A stretch of DNA of 64,000 nucleotides. It comes from Nitrospirota bacterium (lineage in GTDB: Bacteria; Nitrospirota; Thermodesulfovibrionia; Thermodesulfovibrionales; JdFR-86). Below the pieces are notes generated by a model. That model did no database searches, had not been told where the DNA came from, and saw nothing but the letters and a program-made list of their open reading frames with translations. How positions within the stretch are numbered: position 1 is the stretch's first letter; each line of letters begins with the position of its first letter. Both the position numbers and the translations under genes were made by a program. The stretch covers positions 352,001 to 416,000 of the forward strand of contig CAVRJY010000002.1 of NCBI GenBank assembly GCA_963721805.1, read 5' to 3'. Of this stretch, positions 14,404 to 56,791 are shown piece after piece.

Positions 14404-14803
14404 TTTTATTTCCTCCTTTTCGGAATGCGATAATGGTCTTGATTACGTCGAATACCGCCAGTAGCCCGCTCTTAAATCCTCCGCCTCGCGACTCGAAACT
14501 CGATCCCAAGCTCCGAACCGAGTCCGTCACGTGTTTGATGTTCGATGCGGCGGCCGAGAGCGTTGAGGAAAGCGCGCGCGCGTCCTCGGTCACGGCGTTT
14601 ACCTTTTCGGTCACCTGCCGTATGTTGCGCAACGTGGTCTCGGCCTCGCTGAGCACGGACTTCGCGGCAGGCCCGGTCGTGTCGAGAAACTTCGAGACGT
14701 CCATCAGGGTCATCTTAAGCTGCATCAGGGCCGATACCGCATAGCCCACCAGCAGGGCCAGCAGCACGCACGATATCAGGGATACTATCTCTATAACGCT
14801 CAT
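14396..14803 (-). CDS. DUF948/YoxC-like membrane-anchored coiled-coil protein
   Basis: N-terminal TM segment plus helical region, paired with the YtxH-like gene. ATG 14803 lies 6 nt after an extended -10 (TGgTATAGT). Confidence 0.65.
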   Translation of the reverse strand: MSVIEIVSLISCVLLALLVGYAVSALMQLKMTLMDVSKFLDTTGPAAKSVLSEAETTLRNIRQVTEKVNAVTEDARALSSTLSAAASNIKHVTDSVRSLGSSFESRGGGFKSGLLAVFDVIKTIIAFRKGGNKNA

Positions 14804-14874
14804 CAGCAAACTATACCATAAGAAAGCCCGTTAGGCAACAGGTTAACGCTTCTTCTGCTGGCGGGATCTTTTTC

Positions 14875-14997
14875 AAAGCGCTCCAAATCGCTTGATACTG
14901 CGTTGGGCTTCAAAGACTCGCCCTCTATGTACGTCACAATACACCATCGGGCGGTCTTCTTGCCCTGCCTTGTCTGAAGACGATTTGGGCGCGCTTT
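14875..14997 (-). repeat. Structured ~123-bp hairpin repeat, copy A (associated GGTCAACGGCA at 15046-15056)
   Basis: Reverse complement reads AAAGCGCGCCCAAATCGTCTTCAGACAAGG...GTACATAGAGGGC...ACGCAGTATCAAGCGATTTGGAGCGCTTT, nearly identical to copy D. Confidence 0.92.
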
Positions 14998-15110
14998 CGG
15001 GGGGAAGAAGAAGGTGCCCATGGCACCGCCCCCCGCGCCCCACGAGGTCAACGGCATGATTAGCACCCCGCCCATGAAAGCGAGCGATATTGCGGCAGAC
15101 AAGGAACGCC

Positions 15111-16205
15111 CGCGGATTGTAATGTGAAGTGCAACACCTGTGAAAGAAAAAGCCCATCGTCATCCTGTTCTGTTAGAGTCAAGTACCAACCAGACGAAAC
15201 AGAGAGGGAGGGACGATGGGCTACAGTCATTTTAGCATTGATGAGCGGGAGGGCATCGCAAGGATGCGTTATGCGGGGGTGAGCATACGTGAGATCGGGC
15301 GCCAGCTTGGCCGCTCGCCATCGAGCGTGAGCCGGGAGCTGCGGCGCAACACGAAGAAGTCTTTCTATGGCGCGCACGCCGCAACCGTGCTCTATGTCCG
15401 CCGAAGGCATTTTGCGAGCAGACGCCTGAAGCGCTGGCCGGACGGCCTGATCGGCTATGCGATGGCGGGACTTTGCAGGCGTTGGTCGCCGGAGCAGGTG
15501 TCGGGCCGCCTTAAGCTTGACCATCCACATAGCACAGAGATGCGGATATCCTTTGCCACGCTATACAGATGGATACGGCAGGACAGGGCGATGGGGGGCT
15601 CGATGCATCGCATGCTGAGGCGTAAGGGAAGGAGCTACAGAAAAGCCCGGGGGCCTGAGACCAGGGGCCGGTTCAATGGGGCGTTGAGCATCAGGCAGCG
15701 CCCCGAGATCGTGGTCCGGAAGGGACGCTTCGGGGATTGGGAGGCGGATACCGTCTACGGGTTCGACGGGAAAACGTGCATCGCAACGTTTAACGAGCGC
15801 AAGAGCCTCTACCTTATATCGAGGAAGATGCCGAGGCCCGGCTCGGAGGCGTTGAGGGAGGCCGCCGTATCGGCGCTGGGAGGCCTGCGGCAGGGCATGC
15901 GTATGACCATGACCGTGGACAGGGGCAGCGAGTTTGCATGCTACAGGGACTTAAAATACATGATGGGGATCGACGTATACTTCGCCGACCCCTATTGCTC
16001 ATGGCAGCGCGGCCAGAACGAAAACCTCAACGGGCTGCTGCGGCAGTACTTTCCGAAGGGGATCGACTTCAACACAGTAACGCAGGAGCAGCTGGATCGC
16101 GTCGTTGATGAGATTAACAACAGACCAAGAAAAACGCTGGACTACAGGGCACCCGCCGAGGTTGCGGCAAATGCGCGCCTGTTGCACTTGGCTTGACAAT
16201 CCACT
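15111..16205 (+). mobile_element. IS30-family insertion sequence, copy 1 (1095 bp)
   Basis: 26-bp imperfect IRs: CGCGGATTGTAATGTGAAGTGCAACA and rc AGTGGATTGTCAAGCCAAGTGCAACA. Appears identical to 45059-46153. Confidence 0.93.
15216..16196 (+). CDS. IS30-family transposase
   Basis: N-terminal HTH (SIREIGRQLGRSPSSVSRELRRN), WSPEQ, GDWEADTV, DRGSEF, PYCSWQRGQNENLNGLLRQYFPKG, NNRPRK. Confidence 0.96.
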   Translation: MGYSHFSIDEREGIARMRYAGVSIREIGRQLGRSPSSVSRELRRNTKKSFYGAHAATVLYVRRRHFASRRLKRWPDGLIGYAMAGLCRRWSPEQVSGRLKLDHPHSTEMRISFATLYRWIRQDRAMGGSMHRMLRRKGRSYRKARGPETRGRFNGALSIRQRPEIVVRKGRFGDWEADTVYGFDGKTCIATFNERKSLYLISRKMPRPGSEALREAAVSALGGLRQGMRMTMTVDRGSEFACYRDLKYMMGIDVYFADPYCSWQRGQNENLNGLLRQYFPKGIDFNTVTQEQLDRVVDEINNRPRKTLDYRAPAEVAANARLLHLA

Positions 16206-16759
16206 GCGAGAAAAATGACCGGAGGCGTACTGAACGTACGTCGAGGACATTTTTCGAGGCAGAGACGCAGTATCCCGCAATTGCAGCCGCTTTCAGTTAT
16301 ATACATAGTTATCGCGCGTGCCCGCGCGCGCGCTTTTTTTTAGAGCGTTCAAATGAACAAACAAAACATGTTCTAACCCAGCGGAATTCATCGCTTTTTT
16401 CGGGCCTCCGTGTTCATGCGTTCAGAAACGTTTTTCGCGCGTACCACCGCCTCCGGCATCGCCTTCTGCATCTTCAAAATGAGCATATCAGCCTCATCAC
16501 ATATTGAAGCACATCGAAATGAAAAAAGCGATAACCTACTGTTTATATATAAACCGAAGTTGATAGAAAAAATTGATCGCCGTGCGTTTTCTACTAACTT
16601 TCGATTAACTATAGTTACTGACAGGAAAAATTATGGGAGTTACGCACTCCCACTAATGAACTAAAGCTGGTCGTCCCTTCGCTGGAGCGGCCCGTTTTGC
16701 AATTAAAGCCGTTGACCTTGGGGTGCGGGGTCCAGCGGCTGGGCCGCGTCTAACCCCGC

Positions 16760-16882
16760 AAAGCGCAGCCAAATCGTCTTCAGACTAGGAGCGGAGAGGA
16801 AAACGTCCGACGGTGTACTTGGGCGTACATCGAGGACGGATTTCCGAGCAGTGACGACGTATCAAGCGATTTGGGGCGCTTT
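16760..16882 (+). repeat. Hairpin repeat copy C (GCCGTTGACC at 16708-16717)
   Basis: AAAGCGCAGCCAAATCGTCTTCAGACTAGG...GTGTACTTGGGCGTACATCGAGG...ACGACGTATCAAGCGATTTGGGGCGCTTT. Confidence 0.92.
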
Positions 16883-16900
16883 CAAAAAAACTACCGGTAG

Positions 16901-17398
16901 CTACCGTTTAACTTCCTCCTCAAGCTTGTCCAGGCTCGAGTTCCAACCTGCTTCCATCCCGCTTTCCTCCATGGCTATGCGCGCGGCGGGCGATTCCGGA
17001 AGCTCGTATATGATCGAGAGCTTCGTCTTGTGGCCGTGGGCCTCGAACGTCACGGTTACGTGCATCTCGGCGGGGAAGTCAGGGCTTAACCCGTAGTCGG
17101 AGGCCCTCATCTTGTTGCCCTGGGCGTCCTTGAACATGTCCGTGACCTCTATCCGTTCGCCCGGGACGATTTCCCTGAAAAACCCACCGCTCCAGTATTC
17201 CTTGCCGTCAGGGCCGCGCATGGCGTAGAGGTATTCGCCGCCGACTCGCAGGTCGACCTTGGCTACAGGGCATGTAAACCCCTCGGGGCCCCACCAGTTC
17301 TTCAGGTGCTCGGGCTTGGTCCACGTGTCCCAGACCTTCTCGCGCGGCGCGTGTATGATCCTTTCGATAACGAACTCTTTCGCCTCGGTCGGCAGCAT
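16901..17398 (-). CDS. SRPBCC/AHSA1-like (START-fold) protein
   Basis: IERIIHAPREKVWDTWTKPEHLKNWWGP, DLRVGG, GWNSSLDKL. Likely start ATG 17398 after AGGAG. Confidence 0.88.
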   Translation of the reverse strand: MLPTEAKEFVIERIIHAPREKVWDTWTKPEHLKNWWGPEGFTCPVAKVDLRVGGEYLYAMRGPDGKEYWSGGFFREIVPGERIEVTDMFKDAQGNKMRASDYGLSPDFPAEMHVTVTFEAHGHKTKLSIIYELPESPAARIAMEESGMEAGWNSSLDKLEEEVKR

Positions 17399-17480: not shown

Positions 17481-17518
17481 AAACAAAACGGGCCACCCCA
17501 TCGCCGGGGCGGCCCGTT
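17481..17518 (-). terminator. Probable intrinsic terminator downstream of aconitase and repeat D
   Basis: AACGGGCC...GGCCCGTT stem followed on the minus strand by TTGTTT. Confidence 0.5.
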
Positions 17519-17577
17519 CTGCAATTACTGCCTTTGACCTTGTGGGGCGCGGGGGGCTCTTTTATTCTCTCCCCCCG

Positions 17578-17700
17578 AAAGCGCGTCCAAATCGTCTTCA
17601 GACAAGGCAGGGCGAGAAGACCGCCCGATGGTGTACTTGGGCGTACATAGAGGGCGAGTCTTCGATGCCCAACGCAGTATCAAGCGATTTGGAGCGCTTT
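17578..17700 (+). repeat. Hairpin repeat copy D (TGCCTTTGACC at 17529-17539); overlaps the aconitase stop codon
   Basis: AAAGCGCGTCCAAATCGTCTTCAGACAAGGCAGGGCGAGAAGACCGCCCGATGGTGTACTTGGGCGTACATAGAGGGCGAGTCTTCGATGCCCAACGCAGTATCAAGCGATTTGGAGCGCTTT. Confidence 0.93.
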
Positions 17701-19627
17701 AACTAACATTCTTGCGGGTATACGGCAGCAGCCCGCCCGCCTCAACGAGTGCGGCCTCGCGCTCGTTCAGGCCCGACGTCACCTCGAACGAAAATCCCTT
17801 TGTCACGTCCTCGACCTTGCACGTGCCGCTCAGGCATCCCTTCGCGTCCGCGATGCGCAGCGTGTCTCCCTGCTCGATGCGGTCATAGTCGGCCGGGTTT
17901 TTAAACACGAGCGGAAGGACGCCGAAGTTGATGAGGTTGCTCCTATGTATGCGCGCGAAGGCCTTGGCTATCACGGCCTGAAGGCCGAGGTACATCGGGG
18001 CCATCGCGGCGTGCTCGCGCGATGAGCCCTGCCCGTAGTTGTCGCCGCCGACCACGAAGAAGCCATTGAGCCCTTTCGCCCGCTGGTCGAACCTGTCCTC
18101 GACCGTTCCGAAGACATAGGCCGAGATCGCCGGGATGTTCGAGCGCAGCGGGAGCACCTTCGATCCCGCGGGCATGATGTCGTCAGTCGTGATGTTGTCT
18201 CCAAGCTTTAGCGCGACGGTCGCCTCAACCGATCCCTGAAGCTCGGCCTTCACCGGGACTTCCTTTATGTTCGGGCCCTTGACGACCGGCACCGATGCGG
18301 CATCCGGGCGCGGCGGTATGAGCATGTTGTCGTTTATGAGGAATTTCTTTATATCCTTGAACTCGCCCACTGTGAGGTCGGTCTTGAACGGGTCGACGAA
18401 CTCGCCCTTGAGCGCGAATAGCGCGCACAAAAGCGGGTTCATCAGGTATACCGAGGCGGTCTTGTTGCCGCTTCTGCCGTGGAAGTTGCGGTTATACGAG
18501 CGCACGGATACCTGGTTCGTACCCGGCGTGCCGCCCATGCCTATGCACGGCCCGCACGATGCCTCGTACATCCGCGCGCCGGCCGAGACCATGTCAGCGA
18601 GCGAGCCGTCGCGGCCGAGCATCTCGTATACCTGCTTAGATCCGGGGTTTATAAGCAGGCTCACGCCCTTTGCAAGCGTGTGGCCCTTCAGAAGCGAGGC
18701 GACCTGCCTCATGCCCTGGTACGACGAGTTCGTGCAGCTCCCGATGCATGCCTGATGGATCTTCGTGCCGACGAGCGAGCTGATCGTGGCGACGTTGTCA
18801 GGGCTGTGGGGCTGCGCGGTGAGTGGCTCGACCGTCGAGAGGTCTATCTCTATAGTCTCTGCGTACTTCGCGCTTTTATCGGCTGAGAGCTTCGTCCAGT
18901 CGGCCTCGCGGCCCTGGGCCTTCAGGAAGGCGCGAGTGACCTTGTCAGACGGGAATACCGAGGTCGTCGCACCGAGTTCCGCGCCCATATTTGTAATGGT
19001 CGCGCGCTCGGTGAGGCTCAGGTCGAGGACGCCCTCGCCGGTGTACTCGAATATCTTCCCGACCCCGCCCTTTACGGTCAGGCGCCTGAGGAGCTCCAGT
19101 ATCACGTCCATCCCCGTGACCCAAGGCCTGCGGAGCTTTCCGGTTAATCTCACCTCGACTATCGCGGGCATCTTGAGTTCAAACGGCGCGCCGGCCATAA
19201 CGGTCGCGGCATCGAGGCCGCCCACACCGATAGCGAGCATCGCCATGCCGCCATTGGTGGGGGTGTGGCTGTCGGTGCCGAGCGCGATCATGCCGGGCTT
19301 GGCGAAGCGCTCCAGATTGATCTGGTGCGAGATGCCGTTTCCGGGACGCGAGAACCACGCCCCGAACCTCGCTGCGACTGACTCCAGGAATGCGTGGTCG
19401 TCAGCGTTCATGAAATCGGTCTGGAGCGTGTTGTGGTCTACGTATGAGACCGCAAGCGGGACCTTCACGCTGTCTACGCCTATAGCCTCGAACTGGAGCC
19501 ACGCCATCGTGCCGGTGGCGTCCTGCGTATAGACCTCGTCTATGCGGACGCCGATGGTCTCGCCTGCCTTTAATTTGCCGTATGCCCTGTGGGCCTCAAG
19601 TATCTTCTCGGCTACGTTTCTTCCCAT
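17699..19627 (-). CDS. Aconitate hydratase (short aconitase-family type)
   Basis: QDATGT, DSHT, IGSCTNSS, CGPCIG, NITTDDIMPAG and NYGQGSSREHAA. Start ATG 19627 after AGGAG. Confidence 0.88.
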   Translation of the reverse strand: MGRNVAEKILEAHRAYGKLKAGETIGVRIDEVYTQDATGTMAWLQFEAIGVDSVKVPLAVSYVDHNTLQTDFMNADDHAFLESVAARFGAWFSRPGNGISHQINLERFAKPGMIALGTDSHTPTNGGMAMLAIGVGGLDAATVMAGAPFELKMPAIVEVRLTGKLRRPWVTGMDVILELLRRLTVKGGVGKIFEYTGEGVLDLSLTERATITNMGAELGATTSVFPSDKVTRAFLKAQGREADWTKLSADKSAKYAETIEIDLSTVEPLTAQPHSPDNVATISSLVGTKIHQACIGSCTNSSYQGMRQVASLLKGHTLAKGVSLLINPGSKQVYEMLGRDGSLADMVSAGARMYEASCGPCIGMGGTPGTNQVSVRSYNRNFHGRSGNKTASVYLMNPLLCALFALKGEFVDPFKTDLTVGEFKDIKKFLINDNMLIPPRPDAASVPVVKGPNIKEVPVKAELQGSVEATVALKLGDNITTDDIMPAGSKVLPLRSNIPAISAYVFGTVEDRFDQRAKGLNGFFVVGGDNYGQGSSREHAAMAPMYLGLQAVIAKAFARIHRSNLINFGVLPLVFKNPADYDRIEQGDTLRIADAKGCLSGTCKVEDVTKGFSFEVTSGLNEREAALVEAGGLLPYTRKNVS

Positions 19628-44968: not shown

Positions 44969-45058
44969 GTTTGTAACTCTTATCAAAGATTTTGACCGCT
45001 CGCACGATTATGCGGAGGAAACTTAAAGCGCGAGAAATCGTGTCAGACAAGGCAGGGC

Positions 45059-46153
45059 CGCGGATTGTAATGTGAAGTGCAACACCTGTGAAAGAAAAAG
45101 CCCATCGTCATCCTGTTCTGTTAGAGTCAAGTACCAACCAGACGAAACAGAGAGGGAGGGACGATGGGCTACAGTCATTTTAGCATTGATGAGCGGGAGG
45201 GCATCGCAAGGATGCGTTATGCGGGGGTGAGCATACGTGAGATCGGGCGCCAGCTTGGCCGCTCGCCATCGAGCGTGAGCCGGGAGCTGCGGCGCAACAC
45301 GAAGAAGTCTTTCTATGGCGCGCACGCCGCAACCGTGCTCTATGTCCGCCGAAGGCATTTTGCGAGCAGACGCCTGAAGCGCTGGCCGGACGGCCTGATC
45401 GGCTATGCGATGGCGGGACTTTGCAGGCGTTGGTCGCCGGAGCAGGTGTCGGGCCGCCTTAAGCTTGACCATCCACATAGCACAGAGATGCGGATATCCT
45501 TTGCCACGCTATACAGATGGATACGGCAGGACAGGGCGATGGGGGGCTCGATGCATCGCATGCTGAGGCGTAAGGGAAGGAGCTACAGAAAAGCCCGGGG
45601 GCCTGAGACCAGGGGCCGGTTCAATGGGGCGTTGAGCATCAGGCAGCGCCCCGAGATCGTGGTCCGGAAGGGACGCTTCGGGGATTGGGAGGCGGATACC
45701 GTCTACGGGTTCGACGGGAAAACGTGCATCGCAACGTTTAACGAGCGCAAGAGCCTCTACCTTATATCGAGGAAGATGCCGAGGCCCGGCTCGGAGGCGT
45801 TGAGGGAGGCCGCCGTATCGGCGCTGGGAGGCCTGCGGCAGGGCATGCGTATGACCATGACCGTGGACAGGGGCAGCGAGTTTGCATGCTACAGGGACTT
45901 AAAATACATGATGGGGATCGACGTATACTTCGCCGACCCCTATTGCTCATGGCAGCGCGGCCAGAACGAAAACCTCAACGGGCTGCTGCGGCAGTACTTT
46001 CCGAAGGGGATCGACTTCAACACAGTAACGCAGGAGCAGCTGGATCGCGTCGTTGATGAGATTAACAACAGACCAAGAAAAACGCTGGACTACAGGGCAC
46101 CCGCCGAGGTTGCGGCAAATGCGCGCCTGTTGCACTTGGCTTGACAATCCACT
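45059..46153 (+). mobile_element. IS30-family insertion sequence, copy 2 (1095 bp), 2-bp GC target duplication
   Basis: Same IRs and transposase as copy 1. Removing the IS and one GC restores CAAGGCAGGGCGAGAAGACC as in copy D. Confidence 0.93.
45164..46144 (+). CDS. IS30-family transposase (same translation as 15216..16196)
   Basis: Identical 326-aa translation in the ORF track. Confidence 0.96.
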   Translation: MGYSHFSIDEREGIARMRYAGVSIREIGRQLGRSPSSVSRELRRNTKKSFYGAHAATVLYVRRRHFASRRLKRWPDGLIGYAMAGLCRRWSPEQVSGRLKLDHPHSTEMRISFATLYRWIRQDRAMGGSMHRMLRRKGRSYRKARGPETRGRFNGALSIRQRPEIVVRKGRFGDWEADTVYGFDGKTCIATFNERKSLYLISRKMPRPGSEALREAAVSALGGLRQGMRMTMTVDRGSEFACYRDLKYMMGIDVYFADPYCSWQRGQNENLNGLLRQYFPKGIDFNTVTQEQLDRVVDEINNRPRKTLDYRAPAEVAANARLLHLA

Positions 46154-46268
46154 GCGAGAAGACCGCCCGACGGTGTACTGAGATGTACTCCGAGGGCGTG
46201 TCTTTGAAGCACTGACGCAGTATCACGCGCATTTCGCACGCTTTGAAAAAGGATACCGCAACCGCACG

Positions 46269-53310: not shown

Positions 53311-53319
53311 CCCTTTTTC

Positions 53320-53440
53320 AAAGCGCTCCAAATCGCTTGATACGTCGTTGGGCATCGAAGACTCGCCCTCTATGTACGCCCAAGTACACCATCGGGCGGT
53401 TTCCTCGACCTTCCTAGTCTGACGCGATTTATCGCGCTTT
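53320..53440 (-). repeat. Hairpin repeat copy F (GGTCAACGGCA at 53479-53489)
   Basis: + strand AAAGCGCTCCAAATCGCTTGATACGTCGTTGGGC...CCTAGTCTGACGCGATTTATCGCGCTTT, starting 9 nt after the ispF stop. Confidence 0.92.
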
Positions 53441-53828
53441 GCGAAGTGCGCGGCCCAGCCGCTGCCTCCGCGCCTCGTGGTCAACGGCATGATCGGGATT
53501 CCGCCCATCGGCTTACTATAGTTACGCATACCGCGCGCGCGCCTTTTTTTTTATAGCGTTCGGATGTTTGAGGCAAAATCAAGGCTAACCCGACGAAAAA
53601 CAACGATTTGCTGACCGAAACCTCGTTCGGATGTTCGGATGTTTTTGGCCGAAACCCGGGCGATGTTCGAATCCAGTCTGATATTAGTTTAAGTGCGTAA
53701 ACTTTCCGGATCTCTAGGCCAGCTAAATATATCTCTATACACATCGTGCGCGATGATAAACCAACAGGGCGGAACTGCGCCATGGGAACTGGTTCCTAGG
53801 AACCGGTTCCATGGAACCAGTTCCTAGG

Positions 53829-55028
53829 TGTAAAGGTTACGCTCTTACCGGACAGTATCAGGCTGGAAAAAGCAGGCGGCAGCCAGCCCTTCCATCGGTT
53901 AGAATGTTTCACCACAAAACACAGACCGAAGGAGGAAGGGCATGACTGCCAAAGAAAAGATATCACAAGGGAGGCTTTCAATGCTTCAGCTGGCCGAGAG
54001 GCTCAGGAACGTGTCGGAGGCCTGTCGCCGCCGGGGGGTGAGCCGCAGCCAGTTTTACGAGTACAAGCGGGCGTTTCAGGAGCAGGGGTTTGCGGGGCTC
54101 GCGGACCTTCCGCCGATAGCGCGTAGCTGTCCCCACAAGACGCCTGAGGAGGCCCGCAAGCGAGTGATCGAGATGAGCCTTGCTCACCCCCGGTGGGGGA
54201 AGCAGCGCATCTTCGAGCACCTGCTTCTGGAGGGCATATTGGTGCGTCCCTCAACTGTGTATCGCATCCAGGTTCGCGAGGGGCTGGAGTCGAAGGCCAA
54301 GCGCATCCTCCGGCTTGAGCAGGAGGCTAACGGCAAGGAGATCGAGCTAACGGAGGAGCAGGTCAAGCTCATCGAGCGGGCCAATCCGTGCTTCAGGGAA
54401 AGGCATGTGGAGAGCGCATATCCGGGCTATCTGCTCAGCCAGGACACCTTCACGGTGGGCAAGCTCAAGGGCATCGGGACCGTGTATCTGCAGGCCGTGG
54501 TGGACACGTACGGCTCTTATGCCTTCGGCAAGCTGTACACGTCGAAGAGGCCCGAGACGGCGGCCGACGTGCTCTACGACCGCGTGCTGCCGTTTTACGA
54601 GGACCATGGCATCAGGGTCCAGCATGTCCTGACGGACAACGGCTCGGAGTACTGCGGCAAGCTGCTGCGGCATCCGTACGAGCTGTTTCTGGCGCTTCAC
54701 GACATCGCGCATCGAAGGACGAAGGTGGCGACACCGAGGACAAACGGATTCGTGGAGCGGTTTAATCGCACCATCCTGGACGAGTTCTTCTCGGAGACGT
54801 TCAGGTACCGGTTCTACGCATCGCTCGATGAGCTGCAGTATGACCTCGACCGGTGGCTGCACCACTACAACAACGAGCGCCCTCACAAGGGCTATCGCAA
54901 CATGGGCAGACGGCCAATAGAAACTATCGAGCTGGGCAAAAAGCTAAGACAGAAAGCTGAGGAGGAGGCCGCCTGATCAGTGCGACCGATGAGATGGAAA
55001 ACTGTCCGGAGAGCACTGGACTTTTACA
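53829..55028 (+). mobile_element. IS481-family insertion sequence (1200 bp) with 8-bp TTCCTAGG target duplication
   Basis: TGT...ACA ends: TGTAAAGGTTACGCTCTTACCGGACAGT and rc TGTAAAAGTCCAGTGCTCTCCGGACAGT. TTCCTAGG at 53821-53828 and 55029-55036. Confidence 0.93.
53942..54976 (+). CDS. IS481-family transposase
   Basis: NVSEACRRRGVSRSQFY, QDTF.VG, LTDNGSEYCG, PRTNGFVERFNRT, YNNERPH. Confidence 0.95.
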   Translation: MTAKEKISQGRLSMLQLAERLRNVSEACRRRGVSRSQFYEYKRAFQEQGFAGLADLPPIARSCPHKTPEEARKRVIEMSLAHPRWGKQRIFEHLLLEGILVRPSTVYRIQVREGLESKAKRILRLEQEANGKEIELTEEQVKLIERANPCFRERHVESAYPGYLLSQDTFTVGKLKGIGTVYLQAVVDTYGSYAFGKLYTSKRPETAADVLYDRVLPFYEDHGIRVQHVLTDNGSEYCGKLLRHPYELFLALHDIAHRRTKVATPRTNGFVERFNRTILDEFFSETFRYRFYASLDELQYDLDRWLHHYNNERPHKGYRNMGRRPIETIELGKKLRQKAEEEAA

Positions 55029-55159
55029 TTCCTAGGAGTCGGTTCCGTTGATCTATGAAACCCAACAGCGGTGCGTGTTTAGCTTGCCAAGGGAGAGGGC
55101 AGGGGGCTATTTTAAATCAATGCCGTTGACCGCTCGCACGATTATGCAGGTGCTACATT

Positions 55160-55284
55160 AAAGCGCGCCCAAATTGTCTTCAGACTAGGAACGGCGAGAA
55201 GACCGCCCGATGGTGTACTGGGATGTACATAGAGGGCGCGTCTTCGCAGCCGTGACGACGTATCAAGCGATTTGGCGCGGCTTT
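55160..55284 (+). repeat. Hairpin repeat copy G (TGCCGTTGACC at 55121-55131); overlaps the nuoM stop
   Basis: AAAGCGCGCCCAAATTGTCTTCAGACTAGG...GTGTACTGGGATGTACATAGAGGGC...ACGACGTATCAAGCGATTTGGCGCGGCTTT. Confidence 0.92.
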
Positions 55285-56791
55285 AGAAGATGGAGCTAAT
55301 AAAGGATTGCGCCAGATTCAGTTCCTGCGGGCGAATGTTGACGCGCGATAGCAGATGCTCCACGCTCGGGTGCAGGAACCCCAGGAACGCGTTTGGATAT
55401 ATGCCGATCCAGAATATCAGCACGATCATCGGCGCGAGCGTCAGGATCTCGCGGATGTCGATGTCCTTCAAGACCGAGACCTTGGGCGTCACCTCAAGGA
55501 AGAAGACCCTCTGATAGAGCCAGAGCATATAGCCCGCGCCGATGATGACGCCGGTCGCGGCGAACGCGCCGGCCATCTTCGAGGCCGTGAAACCGCCCAG
55601 CAGGATCAGGAACTCGCCTACGAACCCGTTCATGCTCGGAAGCCCGATCGAGGCCAGAGTGAAGATCAAAAACAGCGCTGAGAAGACCGGCATCACGGTG
55701 GCCGTCCCGCCGTAGTCCGCGATGCGGCGCGTATGCGTGCGCTCGTATATCGCCCCGACCGAGAGGAAGAGCCCGCCGGTCACGATGCCGTGGTTGACCA
55801 TCTGGAGGATGCCGCCCTCCATGCCCTGCGTGTTGAGCGAGAAAATACCTAGCGTCACGAACCCCATGTGGCTGACCGAGCTGTACGCGATCAGGCGTTT
55901 TAAGTCGGTCTGCGCGAGGCAGACGACCGCGCCGTAGATGATCGCTATAACCGAGAGCGTGAGCATCACAGGGGTCATGGCCACCGTGGCGGCCGGGAAG
56001 AGCGGGAGCGAGAAGCGCAGGAAGCCGTATGCGCCCATCTTGATCAGCACCGCCGCGAGTACGACGCTGCCCGCTGTAGGGGCCTCGGTATGCGCGTCGG
56101 GCAGCCAGGTGTGCACAGGGAACATCGGCACCTTCACGGCGAAGGCCGCGAAGAAGGCCCAGAAGAGCCAGAACTGGAGCTTGTAGGAATATGCGTGCTC
56201 GGCGAGCTCGCGTATGTCGAGCGTGTGGCTGACGCTATAGAGCGTGATAATGCCGACGAGCATCAGGACGCTTCCGACGAGCGTATAGAGGAAGAACTTG
56301 ATCGCGGCGTACACGCGGTTCGGCCCGCCCCAGACGCCGATAAGGAGGAACATCGGGATCAGCATCGCCTCCCAGAAGATGTAGAACAGGAAGAGGTCCA
56401 TTGCGCAGAACACGCCGATCATCGCGCCTTCGAGGATGAGGAGCGCCATGTAGAACTCCTTGACCTTCTTCGTGATCGCGTTCCATGAGATCGTGATGCA
56501 GAGGATCGTGACGAGCGTCGAGAGCAGGACGAACAGCACGCTTATGCCGTCCACTCCGAGCGAGTAGCGGACGTTGAAGGCATCTATCCAGGGCGCGGAC
56601 TCCTGAAACTGCATCGCGAACGTCGTGGTGTCAAACGAGCTAAACAGCGGCAGCGAGAGCAGGAACGTTATGAAGCTCAGCGTGAGCGCCGAGTATTTGA
56701 TCGCGGCCTCGTTGGAGCGCGGGATCATGCCTATGACCAGCCCGCCGACTATCGGCAGGAAGATCAGCGCGCTCAGTATCGGATAACCCAT
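55283..56791 (-). CDS. nuoM: NADH-quinone oxidoreductase subunit M
   Basis: FWEAMLIPM, KVPMFPVHTWLPDAHTEAPT, AYSSVSHMG. Confidence 0.95.
   Translation of the reverse strand: MGYPILSALIFLPIVGGLVIGMIPRSNEAAIKYSALTLSFITFLLSLPLFSSFDTTTFAMQFQESAPWIDAFNVRYSLGVDGISVLFVLLSTLVTILCITISWNAITKKVKEFYMALLILEGAMIGVFCAMDLFLFYIFWEAMLIPMFLLIGVWGGPNRVYAAIKFFLYTLVGSVLMLVGIITLYSVSHTLDIRELAEHAYSYKLQFWLFWAFFAAFAVKVPMFPVHTWLPDAHTEAPTAGSVVLAAVLIKMGAYGFLRFSLPLFPAATVAMTPVMLTLSVIAIIYGAVVCLAQTDLKRLIAYSSVSHMGFVTLGIFSLNTQGMEGGILQMVNHGIVTGGLFLSVGAIYERTHTRRIADYGGTATVMPVFSALFLIFTLASIGLPSMNGFVGEFLILLGGFTASKMAGAFAATGVIIGAGYMLWLYQRVFFLEVTPKVSVLKDIDIREILTLAPMIVLIFWIGIYPNAFLGFLHPSVEHLLSRVNIRPQELNLAQSFISSIF

Follow-up and report, generated by a model that had tools for sequence, protein, structure and literature searches.

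What kind of element occupies positions 14,875 to 16,882 of the window analyzed here, a 64,000-nucleotide stretch of a Nitrospirota bacterium genome (contig CAVRJY010000002.1), in which two long hairpins face each other across an interior broken by an insertion sequence (IS)? An earlier note on this DNA had recognized the same order of parts at a second place in the window, and had taken the two as either a non-autonomous mobile unit with 160-190-bp structured inverted termini or a conserved chromosomal site of fixed architecture, rather than as chance neighbours. We find that both places, loci A and B, belong to a genome-wide set of 'cassette bays'; they carry no cargo, and each has been disrupted by an IS. 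In such a bay, two inward-facing copies of a polar repeat, the boundary unit, enclose 0-3 kb of cargo, often together with a conserved leader. The descriptive picture, in which polar units derived from a miniature inverted-repeat transposable element (MITE) and a leader accompany variable cargo, is well supported. From it we infer that the boundary repeats and leader are shared flanks between which cassettes are exchanged by recombination and not by transposition, a mechanism to which we assign a probability of about 0.5.

A polar repeat at the edge of AT-rich DNA

The boundary unit is present in the 2.78-Mb genome in ~210 copies by BLAST and 239 by nhmmer. It is a polar repeat of ~190 bp that opens at its inner end with the consensus CTCTAATCAAT-GCCGTTGACC, continues through a variable spacer that is either ~50 nt and GC-rich or ~27 nt long, and closes with a 130-nt imperfect palindrome (AAAGCGCnCCAAATCG...CGATTTGGnGCGCTTT) followed by a purine-rich tail (GAAGAAGGCTAC). 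The GCCGTTGACC motif is found with at most one mismatch in 164 of 183 full units. The hairpin is maintained by compensatory change: across 169 units its 42 pairs are standard in 91% of cases, compared with 26-44% when the partner is slid, double changes occur at 23 pairs as opposed to 6-11 in the slid control, and a 39-unit alignment displays compensatory change at 12 of 29 pairs. Single copies fold with z-scores of -3.4 to -4.6, with one copy at -1.0.

Unit orientation follows the composition of the surrounding DNA. The 400 bp on the inner side have a mean GC content of 0.509 and fall below 0.5 in 109 of 238 units, whereas the outer side, at a mean of 0.604, matches the genome (0.603) and falls below 0.5 in only 8 of 238. 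Neighbouring units lie less than 2 kb apart in 45 of the 72 cases where inner ends face each other, as against 6 of 70 where outer ends do. Bracket matching recovers 74 nested inward pairs within 12 kb, compared with 50.1 +/- 4.6 for shuffled orientations and 47 under the flipped rule. Approached from the AT-rich DNA itself, 94 low-GC segments of 0.6-4 kb include 25 with correctly oriented units at both edges and 35 with one at a single edge; random placement of all 230 low-GC segments yields 1.2 and 12, respectively (~13 in total). The units mark the edge between native (60% GC) and AT-rich DNA. Chance neighbourhood, already doubted in the earlier note, was rejected on genome-wide recurrence and on these polarity and pairing counts; because the same architecture recurs genome-wide, that of loci A and B is far beyond chance. 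The note's second reading, a conserved chromosomal site, proved the closer of the two in that the architecture is fixed and recurrent, but what recurs is a set of cassette bays and not single sites.

The association is one of small segments. Low-GC segments above 4 kb have no unit in four of five cases and a unit at one edge in the fifth. Large islands between distant inward pairs were considered and rejected, given that the 5.7-29-kb interiors have normal GC (0.61-0.65); such pairs enclose ordinary DNA and ~90 units are therefore solo. Two large low-GC islands without boundary units (C2:1245-25457 and C2:301974-343342) carry phage-type tyrosine integrases and a serine recombinase, and thus belong to a separate, conventional island class. 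At the other extreme, seven back-to-back unit pairs have a gap of less than 100 bp, as in an 'empty' pair that reads GGTCAACGGC, a 12-nt AT-rich stretch and GCAGTTGACC.

The second shared component is a ~330-bp leader, which sits on one side of the bay. Blocks of unit plus leader (~540 bp) occur at at least 25 loci with 66-88% identity, and homology ceases at the outer end of the unit. A terminator-like hairpin and T-run, directed against incoming transcription, open the leader; GTTCAAATG or GTTCGGATG repeats follow, and then a near-invariant block (GGTTTATATATAAACC...CGTGCGTTTTCTAyTAACTTnCGAyTAACTATnGTTA) leads to a sharp inner end at TAACTATAGTTA, with 29 of 29 copies diverging past GTTA(A/G)TGA. 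Some other leaders carry an array of the GGAACnnGTTCC palindrome with a 14-bp period (the GGAAC array); arrays of two to three sites number 19 in total, 16 of them within 600 bp of a unit. Orientation was as expected in 11 of the 11 cases where the leader start abuts a unit. Three bays (L007, L003 and C1:479923) have in common ~45 conserved nt, TGGnATACTCnnnGCGGTTGTGGTATCTTTGGAGCATGATGC, between leader end and cargo start, which may be a module of promoter and 5' untranslated region.

Searches outside the genome returned little at the nucleotide level. Rfam gave no match at gathering score in the whole window and only chance-level scores (E 0.6-0.8) in 14800-17000; no known RNA family was recognized. 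An exact 23-mer of the unit had no match in collections of genome contigs and metagenome contigs, which may omit this genome, and leader plus unit had no blastn match among plasmids and phages. Among sequencing runs, the listing gave four metagenome runs (shares <=0.20) and no RNA run. The metagenome contigs compared were ~200-400 bp long; none spanned a bay, and their joints lay between copies of the repeat. Sediment and soil contigs (runs X2 and X4; second study) stack on the unit positions of L056 with many differences and high summed depth; other organisms of those samples therefore contain related repeat copies. Two variations on the unit itself deserve record. Half-unit tandem arrays with a ~83-bp period and three copies each (C1:1090602-1090768, in minus-strand coordinates, and C1:456381-456633) are without explanation in any model considered here. 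In ~35 units, mostly solo (e.g. C1:350360, C1:117043 and C4:195540), the module beside the inner motif consists of two to three short GC hairpins, each after (C)TATTCGC, for example ...CTATTCGCGGGGTCACGGACCCCTCTCACTATTCGCGCCACAGCGCTCATCTCTAATCAAT.

Loci A and B and the insertion sequences within them

Direct reading of the sequence established the same order of elements at both loci, as the earlier note had described: a minus-orientation ~190-bp repeat comes first and a plus-orientation repeat starting with GCCGTTGACC comes last. Next to the left repeat, GGTCAACGGCATGAT, 7 nt and CCGCCCAT follow one another at 15046-15075 in locus A and at 53479-53508 in locus B. A repeat search resolved the inverted arms of locus A (14869-15065 and 16698-16888) into three segments of 35, 90 and 33 nt that are 74-89% complementary, and those of locus B (53315-53437 and 55165-55288) as 80-85% complementary. 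The IS-stripped sizes given earlier, ~790 and 760 bp, compare well with the 919 bp (~790 bp without a nested copy) and 765 bp found here. The 'shared core' that the note placed between the repeats is real, with a local score of 49 compared with 19.3 +/- 2.0 (maximum 27) in 300 shuffles, but narrower than implied: the interiors can be aligned over only ~50 nt, comprising TATAGTTA, a GC hairpin, a T8-9 run and AGCGTTC, and the remainder consists of two different leader subtypes.

At locus A the left boundary unit (14868-15060, minus strand) has its outer end leftward, with the hairpin at 14875-15005, then the spacer and the inner motif GGTCAACGGC at 15046-15055; its DNA fold is -27.2 kcal/mol (z -3.5). 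On the plus strand, 15068-15113 holds the CCGCCCAT junction (15068-15075) and then the first portion of a nested variant unit ('type-2'), whose second portion resumes at 16203-16292 (plus) beyond an IS30-family IS (15114-16202, plus; 1089 bp) that encodes a 326-aa transposase at 15216-16196. An A-type conserved leader follows at 16293-16620 (plus), with its terminator-like hairpin at 16313-16332 and T8, GTTCA repeats, the palindrome GGTTTATATATAAACC and an end at TAACTATAGTTA. Between the leader end at 16620 and the inner extension of the right unit, which begins 77 bp further on, lies the residual 'cargo' position (16621-16697), unoccupied but for a minus-strand terminator-like hairpin (16633-16653). 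The right unit (16698-16895, plus) has GCCGTTGACC at 16708-16717 and its hairpin at 16760-16882 (z -3.4). A further solo boundary unit lies at 17515-17714 (plus) between minus-strand open reading frames (ORFs) of 207 and 659 aa, and reaches with its outer end into the stop region of the latter.

The left unit of locus B (53313-53493, minus) begins 3 nt past the stop codon of an IspF-like ORF and has its hairpin at 53320-53440 and GGTCAACGGC at 53479-53488. A segment at 53501-53770 (plus) then combines CCGCCCAT with a B-type leader made up of TATAGTTAC, a GC hairpin, T9 and GTTCGGATG repeats. The GGAACnnGTTCC array (14-bp period) occupies 53771-53828 and resumes at 55029-55046 beyond an IS481-family IS (53829-55028, plus; 1200 bp), which encodes a 344-aa transposase at 53942-54976 and has TTCCTAGG on each flank. 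After ~85 bp from the GGAAC array comes the right unit (55105-55296, plus), of the short spacer type, with GCCGTTGACC at 55122-55131 and a hairpin at 55160-55284 (z -4.5); its last bases overlap the stop codon of a convergent 502-aa ORF. The neighbours of IspF gave best identities of 56-60%, scattered across many phyla, and were uninformative as to taxonomy.

The earlier note had each locus struck by a different IS. That much stands, since NCBIfam assigns the two elements to the IS30 and IS481 families, respectively, but the hits are not random because both families home to modules of the repeat family. Of the seven IS30-family copies, all at least 99.9% identical, five sit at one identical position in a unit hairpin, the target at locus A being the nested variant unit. 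Each of the ten IS481-family copies abuts a GGAAC array, at one edge or the other, and has duplicated 7-8 bp (e.g. TTCCTAGG). We infer from these positions that the IS30-family element homes to the unit hairpin and the IS481-family element to the array edge. A second IS30-family copy in the window, identical to that of locus A (45062-46150), splits another boundary unit at the same hairpin position (flanks 45000-45061 and 46151-46260). Derivation of the unit from a RAYT/REP system or from IS200 was rejected: the ends of IS200 have a hairpin of their own and flanks unrelated to the units, and no RAYT was recognized, the six Y1_Tnp matches all being one identical IS200 with varied flanks.

Origin of the boundary unit and proposed exchange of cargo

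A covariance model of the hairpin has matches in 18 of 150 other genomes of the order, distributed over four families. BLASTN of the unit in 30 relatives gave no match, a zero that the covariance-model matches identify as a limit of sensitivity; the leader, by BLASTN in the same 150 genomes, gave a single 24-nt match only. The element in relatives is ~185 bp long and carries at both ends the 19-bp terminal inverted repeat AGAACCTRTCTCAAAATTG, as expected of a MITE, and its copies mostly read TAGAACC...GGTTCTA, in which the TA could be a TA duplication or part of the terminal repeat. It is nearly always solo in 271 kb around 20 matches, with one inward pair 5.8 kb apart. Four relatives have between 37 and 109 matches to the terminal repeat pattern, and this genome has 5; the unit here lacks the paired ends of a MITE, its inner CTCTAATCAAT-GCCGTTGACC being unlike its outer GCGCTTTGAAGAAGGCTAC. 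No IS630-family transposase scored above cut-off in this genome or the four relatives, and among the matches listed no pair of terminal repeats stands at IS-like spacing. The loops CAGACAAGG and GACGnnGTAT are near-invariant across genera and the stems covary; this conservation of structure across families points to a predicted binding partner. The unit thus descends from a 185-bp MITE with terminal inverted repeats that is spread through the order, and in this lineage it has lost the ancestral termini and gained the inner motif. The earlier suggestion that the termini come from a mobile element is upheld.

What lies between the units varies widely. The interiors of 40 inward pairs range in GC from 0.34 to 0.62 and hold unrelated ORFs, and many pairs enclose 0.6-3 kb of cargo with restriction-modification, SIR2, TIR, KAP-NTPase and GNAT genes and many unknowns. 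In a first cargo set of 28 ORFs, 11 have unrelated Pfam families (among them FMN reductase, GNATs, AdoMet decarboxylase, SdpI-like, SRAP, KAP NTPase and Abi_C) and 17 have none. Many of the 50 ORFs of a second set also have unrelated Pfam families, including MmeI-type and type II restriction-modification, a methylase-Mrr fusion with an ankyrin protein, a PLD-like protein, a nucleotidyltransferase and a SIR2-like protein. PADLOC defence models are matched by 12 of 46 cargo ORFs. The only multi-copy proteins are transposases of the IS30 family (7), the IS481 family (10) and IS200 (6). The longer copy with a transposase, recombinase or Rep gene that the earlier note proposed to look for was not found among the cargo ORFs by Pfam. 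One bay contains four direct repeats of ~30 bp (CCAAAnCTTACATATG...) at L001:1390-1540 (C1:73495-73645), 3' of a cargo gene for a 252-aa membrane protein.

A natural comparison bearing on cargo replacement is offered by contig C9 (13.7 kb), whose sequence aligns colinearly with C1:844383-858281 (80-88% identity). The alignment breaks down for the 1.5-1.6 kb enclosed by the same two units (C9:10407-11885 and C1:854992-856609), with homology lost ~22 nt inside GGTCAACGGCATTGAT at one end and at TAACTATAGTTA at the other. Identity is 86-96% in the leader and only 56-76% in the right unit, owing to a difference in spacer subtype. Thus, cargo and units are replaced and the scaffold stays in place. 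We propose that the units and leader no longer function as transposon ends. They would instead serve as shared flanking sequence and probably also as transcriptional insulators, and homologous recombination or gene conversion would swap cassettes, and the units themselves, among bays or strains. Identity between partner units is 0.762, compared with 0.758 for random pairs (p 0.41), and in 1 of 51 cases a unit's nearest relative is its partner. Since partners are no closer than random units, neither concerted evolution nor local duplication was accepted as the source of the two ends.

Several rival explanations were weighed against exchange by recombination. A site-specific cassette platform, in the manner of integrons or of Acinetobacter plasmid dif modules, would have a putative recombinase insert or excise cassettes at the junctions (GGTCAACGGCATTGAT... 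and ...TAACTATAGTTA) and would use the hairpin as an accessory or folded-strand site. The high conservation of both junction motifs exactly at the cargo boundaries speaks for such a platform, as do the 'empty' back-to-back pairs, an attC-like hairpin kept by compensatory change, and small, AT-rich, diverse cargo that includes GNATs and unknowns, as in integron cassettes. We nevertheless consider it unlikely. The best TIGR02249 score for an integron integrase is 126.5 bits against a cut-off of 265; seven tyrosine recombinases comprise XerC, XerD and five of phage type away from the bays, alongside one serine recombinase; the order AAC...cargo...GTT is the reverse of an integron cassette; the units are inverted and dispersed over all large contigs in place of a direct array; the two cargo junctions differ in sequence; and the C9/C1 homology runs ~22 nt beyond the motif. 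An integron or a cluster of attC sites lacking an integrase (CALIN) was rejected, with no IntI at cut-off and with units that face each other in dispersed pairs. We would also class as quite improbable an integrase-free, chromosome-wide cassette system in which the domesticated MITE hairpin and leader would make up ~70 dispersed bays, a putative enzyme reading the hairpin or the junctions (GGTCAACGGC, TAACTATAGTTA) would shuffle defence and accessory genes, and the conserved loops (CAGACAAGG, GACGnnGTAT) would be a protein-binding site.

The first reading of the earlier note, one transposon with 160-190-bp termini, corresponds to a non-autonomous composite transposon, or mobile insertion cassette, whose structured terminal repeats would be acted on by a transposase from elsewhere. 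Its inverted termini of fixed polarity, their derivation from a true MITE and the coexistence of cargo-bearing and cargo-less copies are all consistent with such an element, and identical MITEs flank class 1 integrons in Acinetobacter according to the review PMC10969869. Against it, none of 29 composites has a target-site duplication (the longest flank repeat averages 3.34 nt, compared with 3.52 nt in mismatched controls), and the two ends of a composite are of unrelated lineages; this reading is not supported. The derived units also lack the ancestral terminal repeat, with only the five pattern matches noted above in the genome; no IS630-family transposase passes the cut-off in this genome or the four relatives; no composite carries a transposase beyond inserted IS30, IS481 and IS200 elements; and, outside the colinear C9/C1 region, no composite recurs at a second site with both its cargo and its ends. 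Transposition of this kind is, in our judgment, a poor prospect. A different account takes the units as 3'-end RNA elements of native genes (terminators or mRNA stabilizers, cf. REP and ERIC), with foreign DNA gathering harmlessly between convergent genes and the geometry following from gene direction. It draws on the closeness of outer ends to gene ends, with 76 of 139 convergent ORFs ending 1-30 nt away and a stop codon overlapped at locus B, on the independence of partner units, on the spacing of outer-facing pairs, nearly all more than 1.5 kb apart and so with room for genes, and on a structure conserved in four families of the order. It leaves unexplained, however, the contact of 60 of the 94 small low-GC segments with a unit (chance expectation ~13 of 230), the 540-bp unit-leader block and the inner motif, and only TTT follows the hairpin, which is therefore a poor intrinsic terminator. 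We doubt this safe-harbour account as a full explanation, and note that it can be compatible with exchange by recombination.

Exchange by recombination, the reading we prefer, has points against it as well. It leaves the spread of ~240 derived units and at least 25 leaders after loss of the terminal repeats without explanation, and the sharp conserved motifs exactly at the cargo boundaries also fit a site-specific system. In only 14 of 20 bays, as read from a mechanical ORF table, does the largest cargo ORF run in the leader's direction, so the leader cannot count as a strict expression platform. The stop-proximity figure (76 of 139) does not allow for spurious ORFs at a genomic GC of 60%. Because ~90 units have no partner within 12 kb and about half of all units have normal-GC DNA on their inner side, many units are plain solo repeats; conversely, 34 of the 94 small low-GC segments are without a unit. 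Finally, the case for exchange combines one natural comparison, C9 with C1, and negative evidence, and C9 could be either a relative that was co-assembled or a region paralogous to that of C1.

Relation to known systems

The arrangement shows that a MITE family changed role in one lineage, from an ordinary dispersed repeat in relatives to a polar boundary here, where units bound about two thirds of the small AT-rich islets and many islets carry defence genes. If bays exchange cargo, accessory genes would be held and reshuffled at many chromosomal sites with no need of an integron, integrase island or transposase. The genome also offers a case of IS elements homing to a repeat family, IS30 to its hairpin and IS481 to its palindrome array. 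A narrow search of the literature, which is not proof of absence, found no description of such a bay arrangement.

Neisseria minimal mobile elements and Acinetobacter pdif modules exchange cassettes between fixed flanks without a transposase of their own, the flanks being conserved genes in the former and 28-bp Xer sites in the latter; in the bays described here the flanks are a dispersed repeat of 190-540 bp. Integron attC sites are structured imperfect palindromes kept by compensatory change, and their cassettes are small and diverse. The bays differ from integrons and CALINs in having no IntI, in their inverted and dispersed sites and in the opposite order of core motifs around the cargo. 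Like the REP/BIME sequences that go with RAYT transposases (PMC2817692), the units are abundant extragenic palindromes of alternating orientation near gene ends; unlike them, they are five to six times longer and come with no RAYT, only six IS200 copies with unrelated hairpins.

The closest likeness is to transposon-derived repeats. General properties of bacterial MITEs are set out in the review PMC10969869. With the Correia, ERIC and Coxiella QMITE2 elements the unit shares a length of 130-190 bp, intergenic position, high copy number and long imperfect hairpins, and the form found in relatives adds 19-bp terminal inverted repeats and T...A flanks; the units of this genome depart from them in having two unlike ends, no recognizable terminal inverted repeat and a fixed polarity to low-GC DNA. 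Mobile insertion cassettes likewise hold transposase-free passenger genes between inverted transposon-derived repeats, and the MITE-flanked class 1 integrons of Acinetobacter (PMC10969869) hold passengers between inverted repeat copies. The bays differ from both in the absence of target duplications, in unrelated cargo between unrelated ends, in a shared leader and in their recurrence by the dozen on one chromosome.

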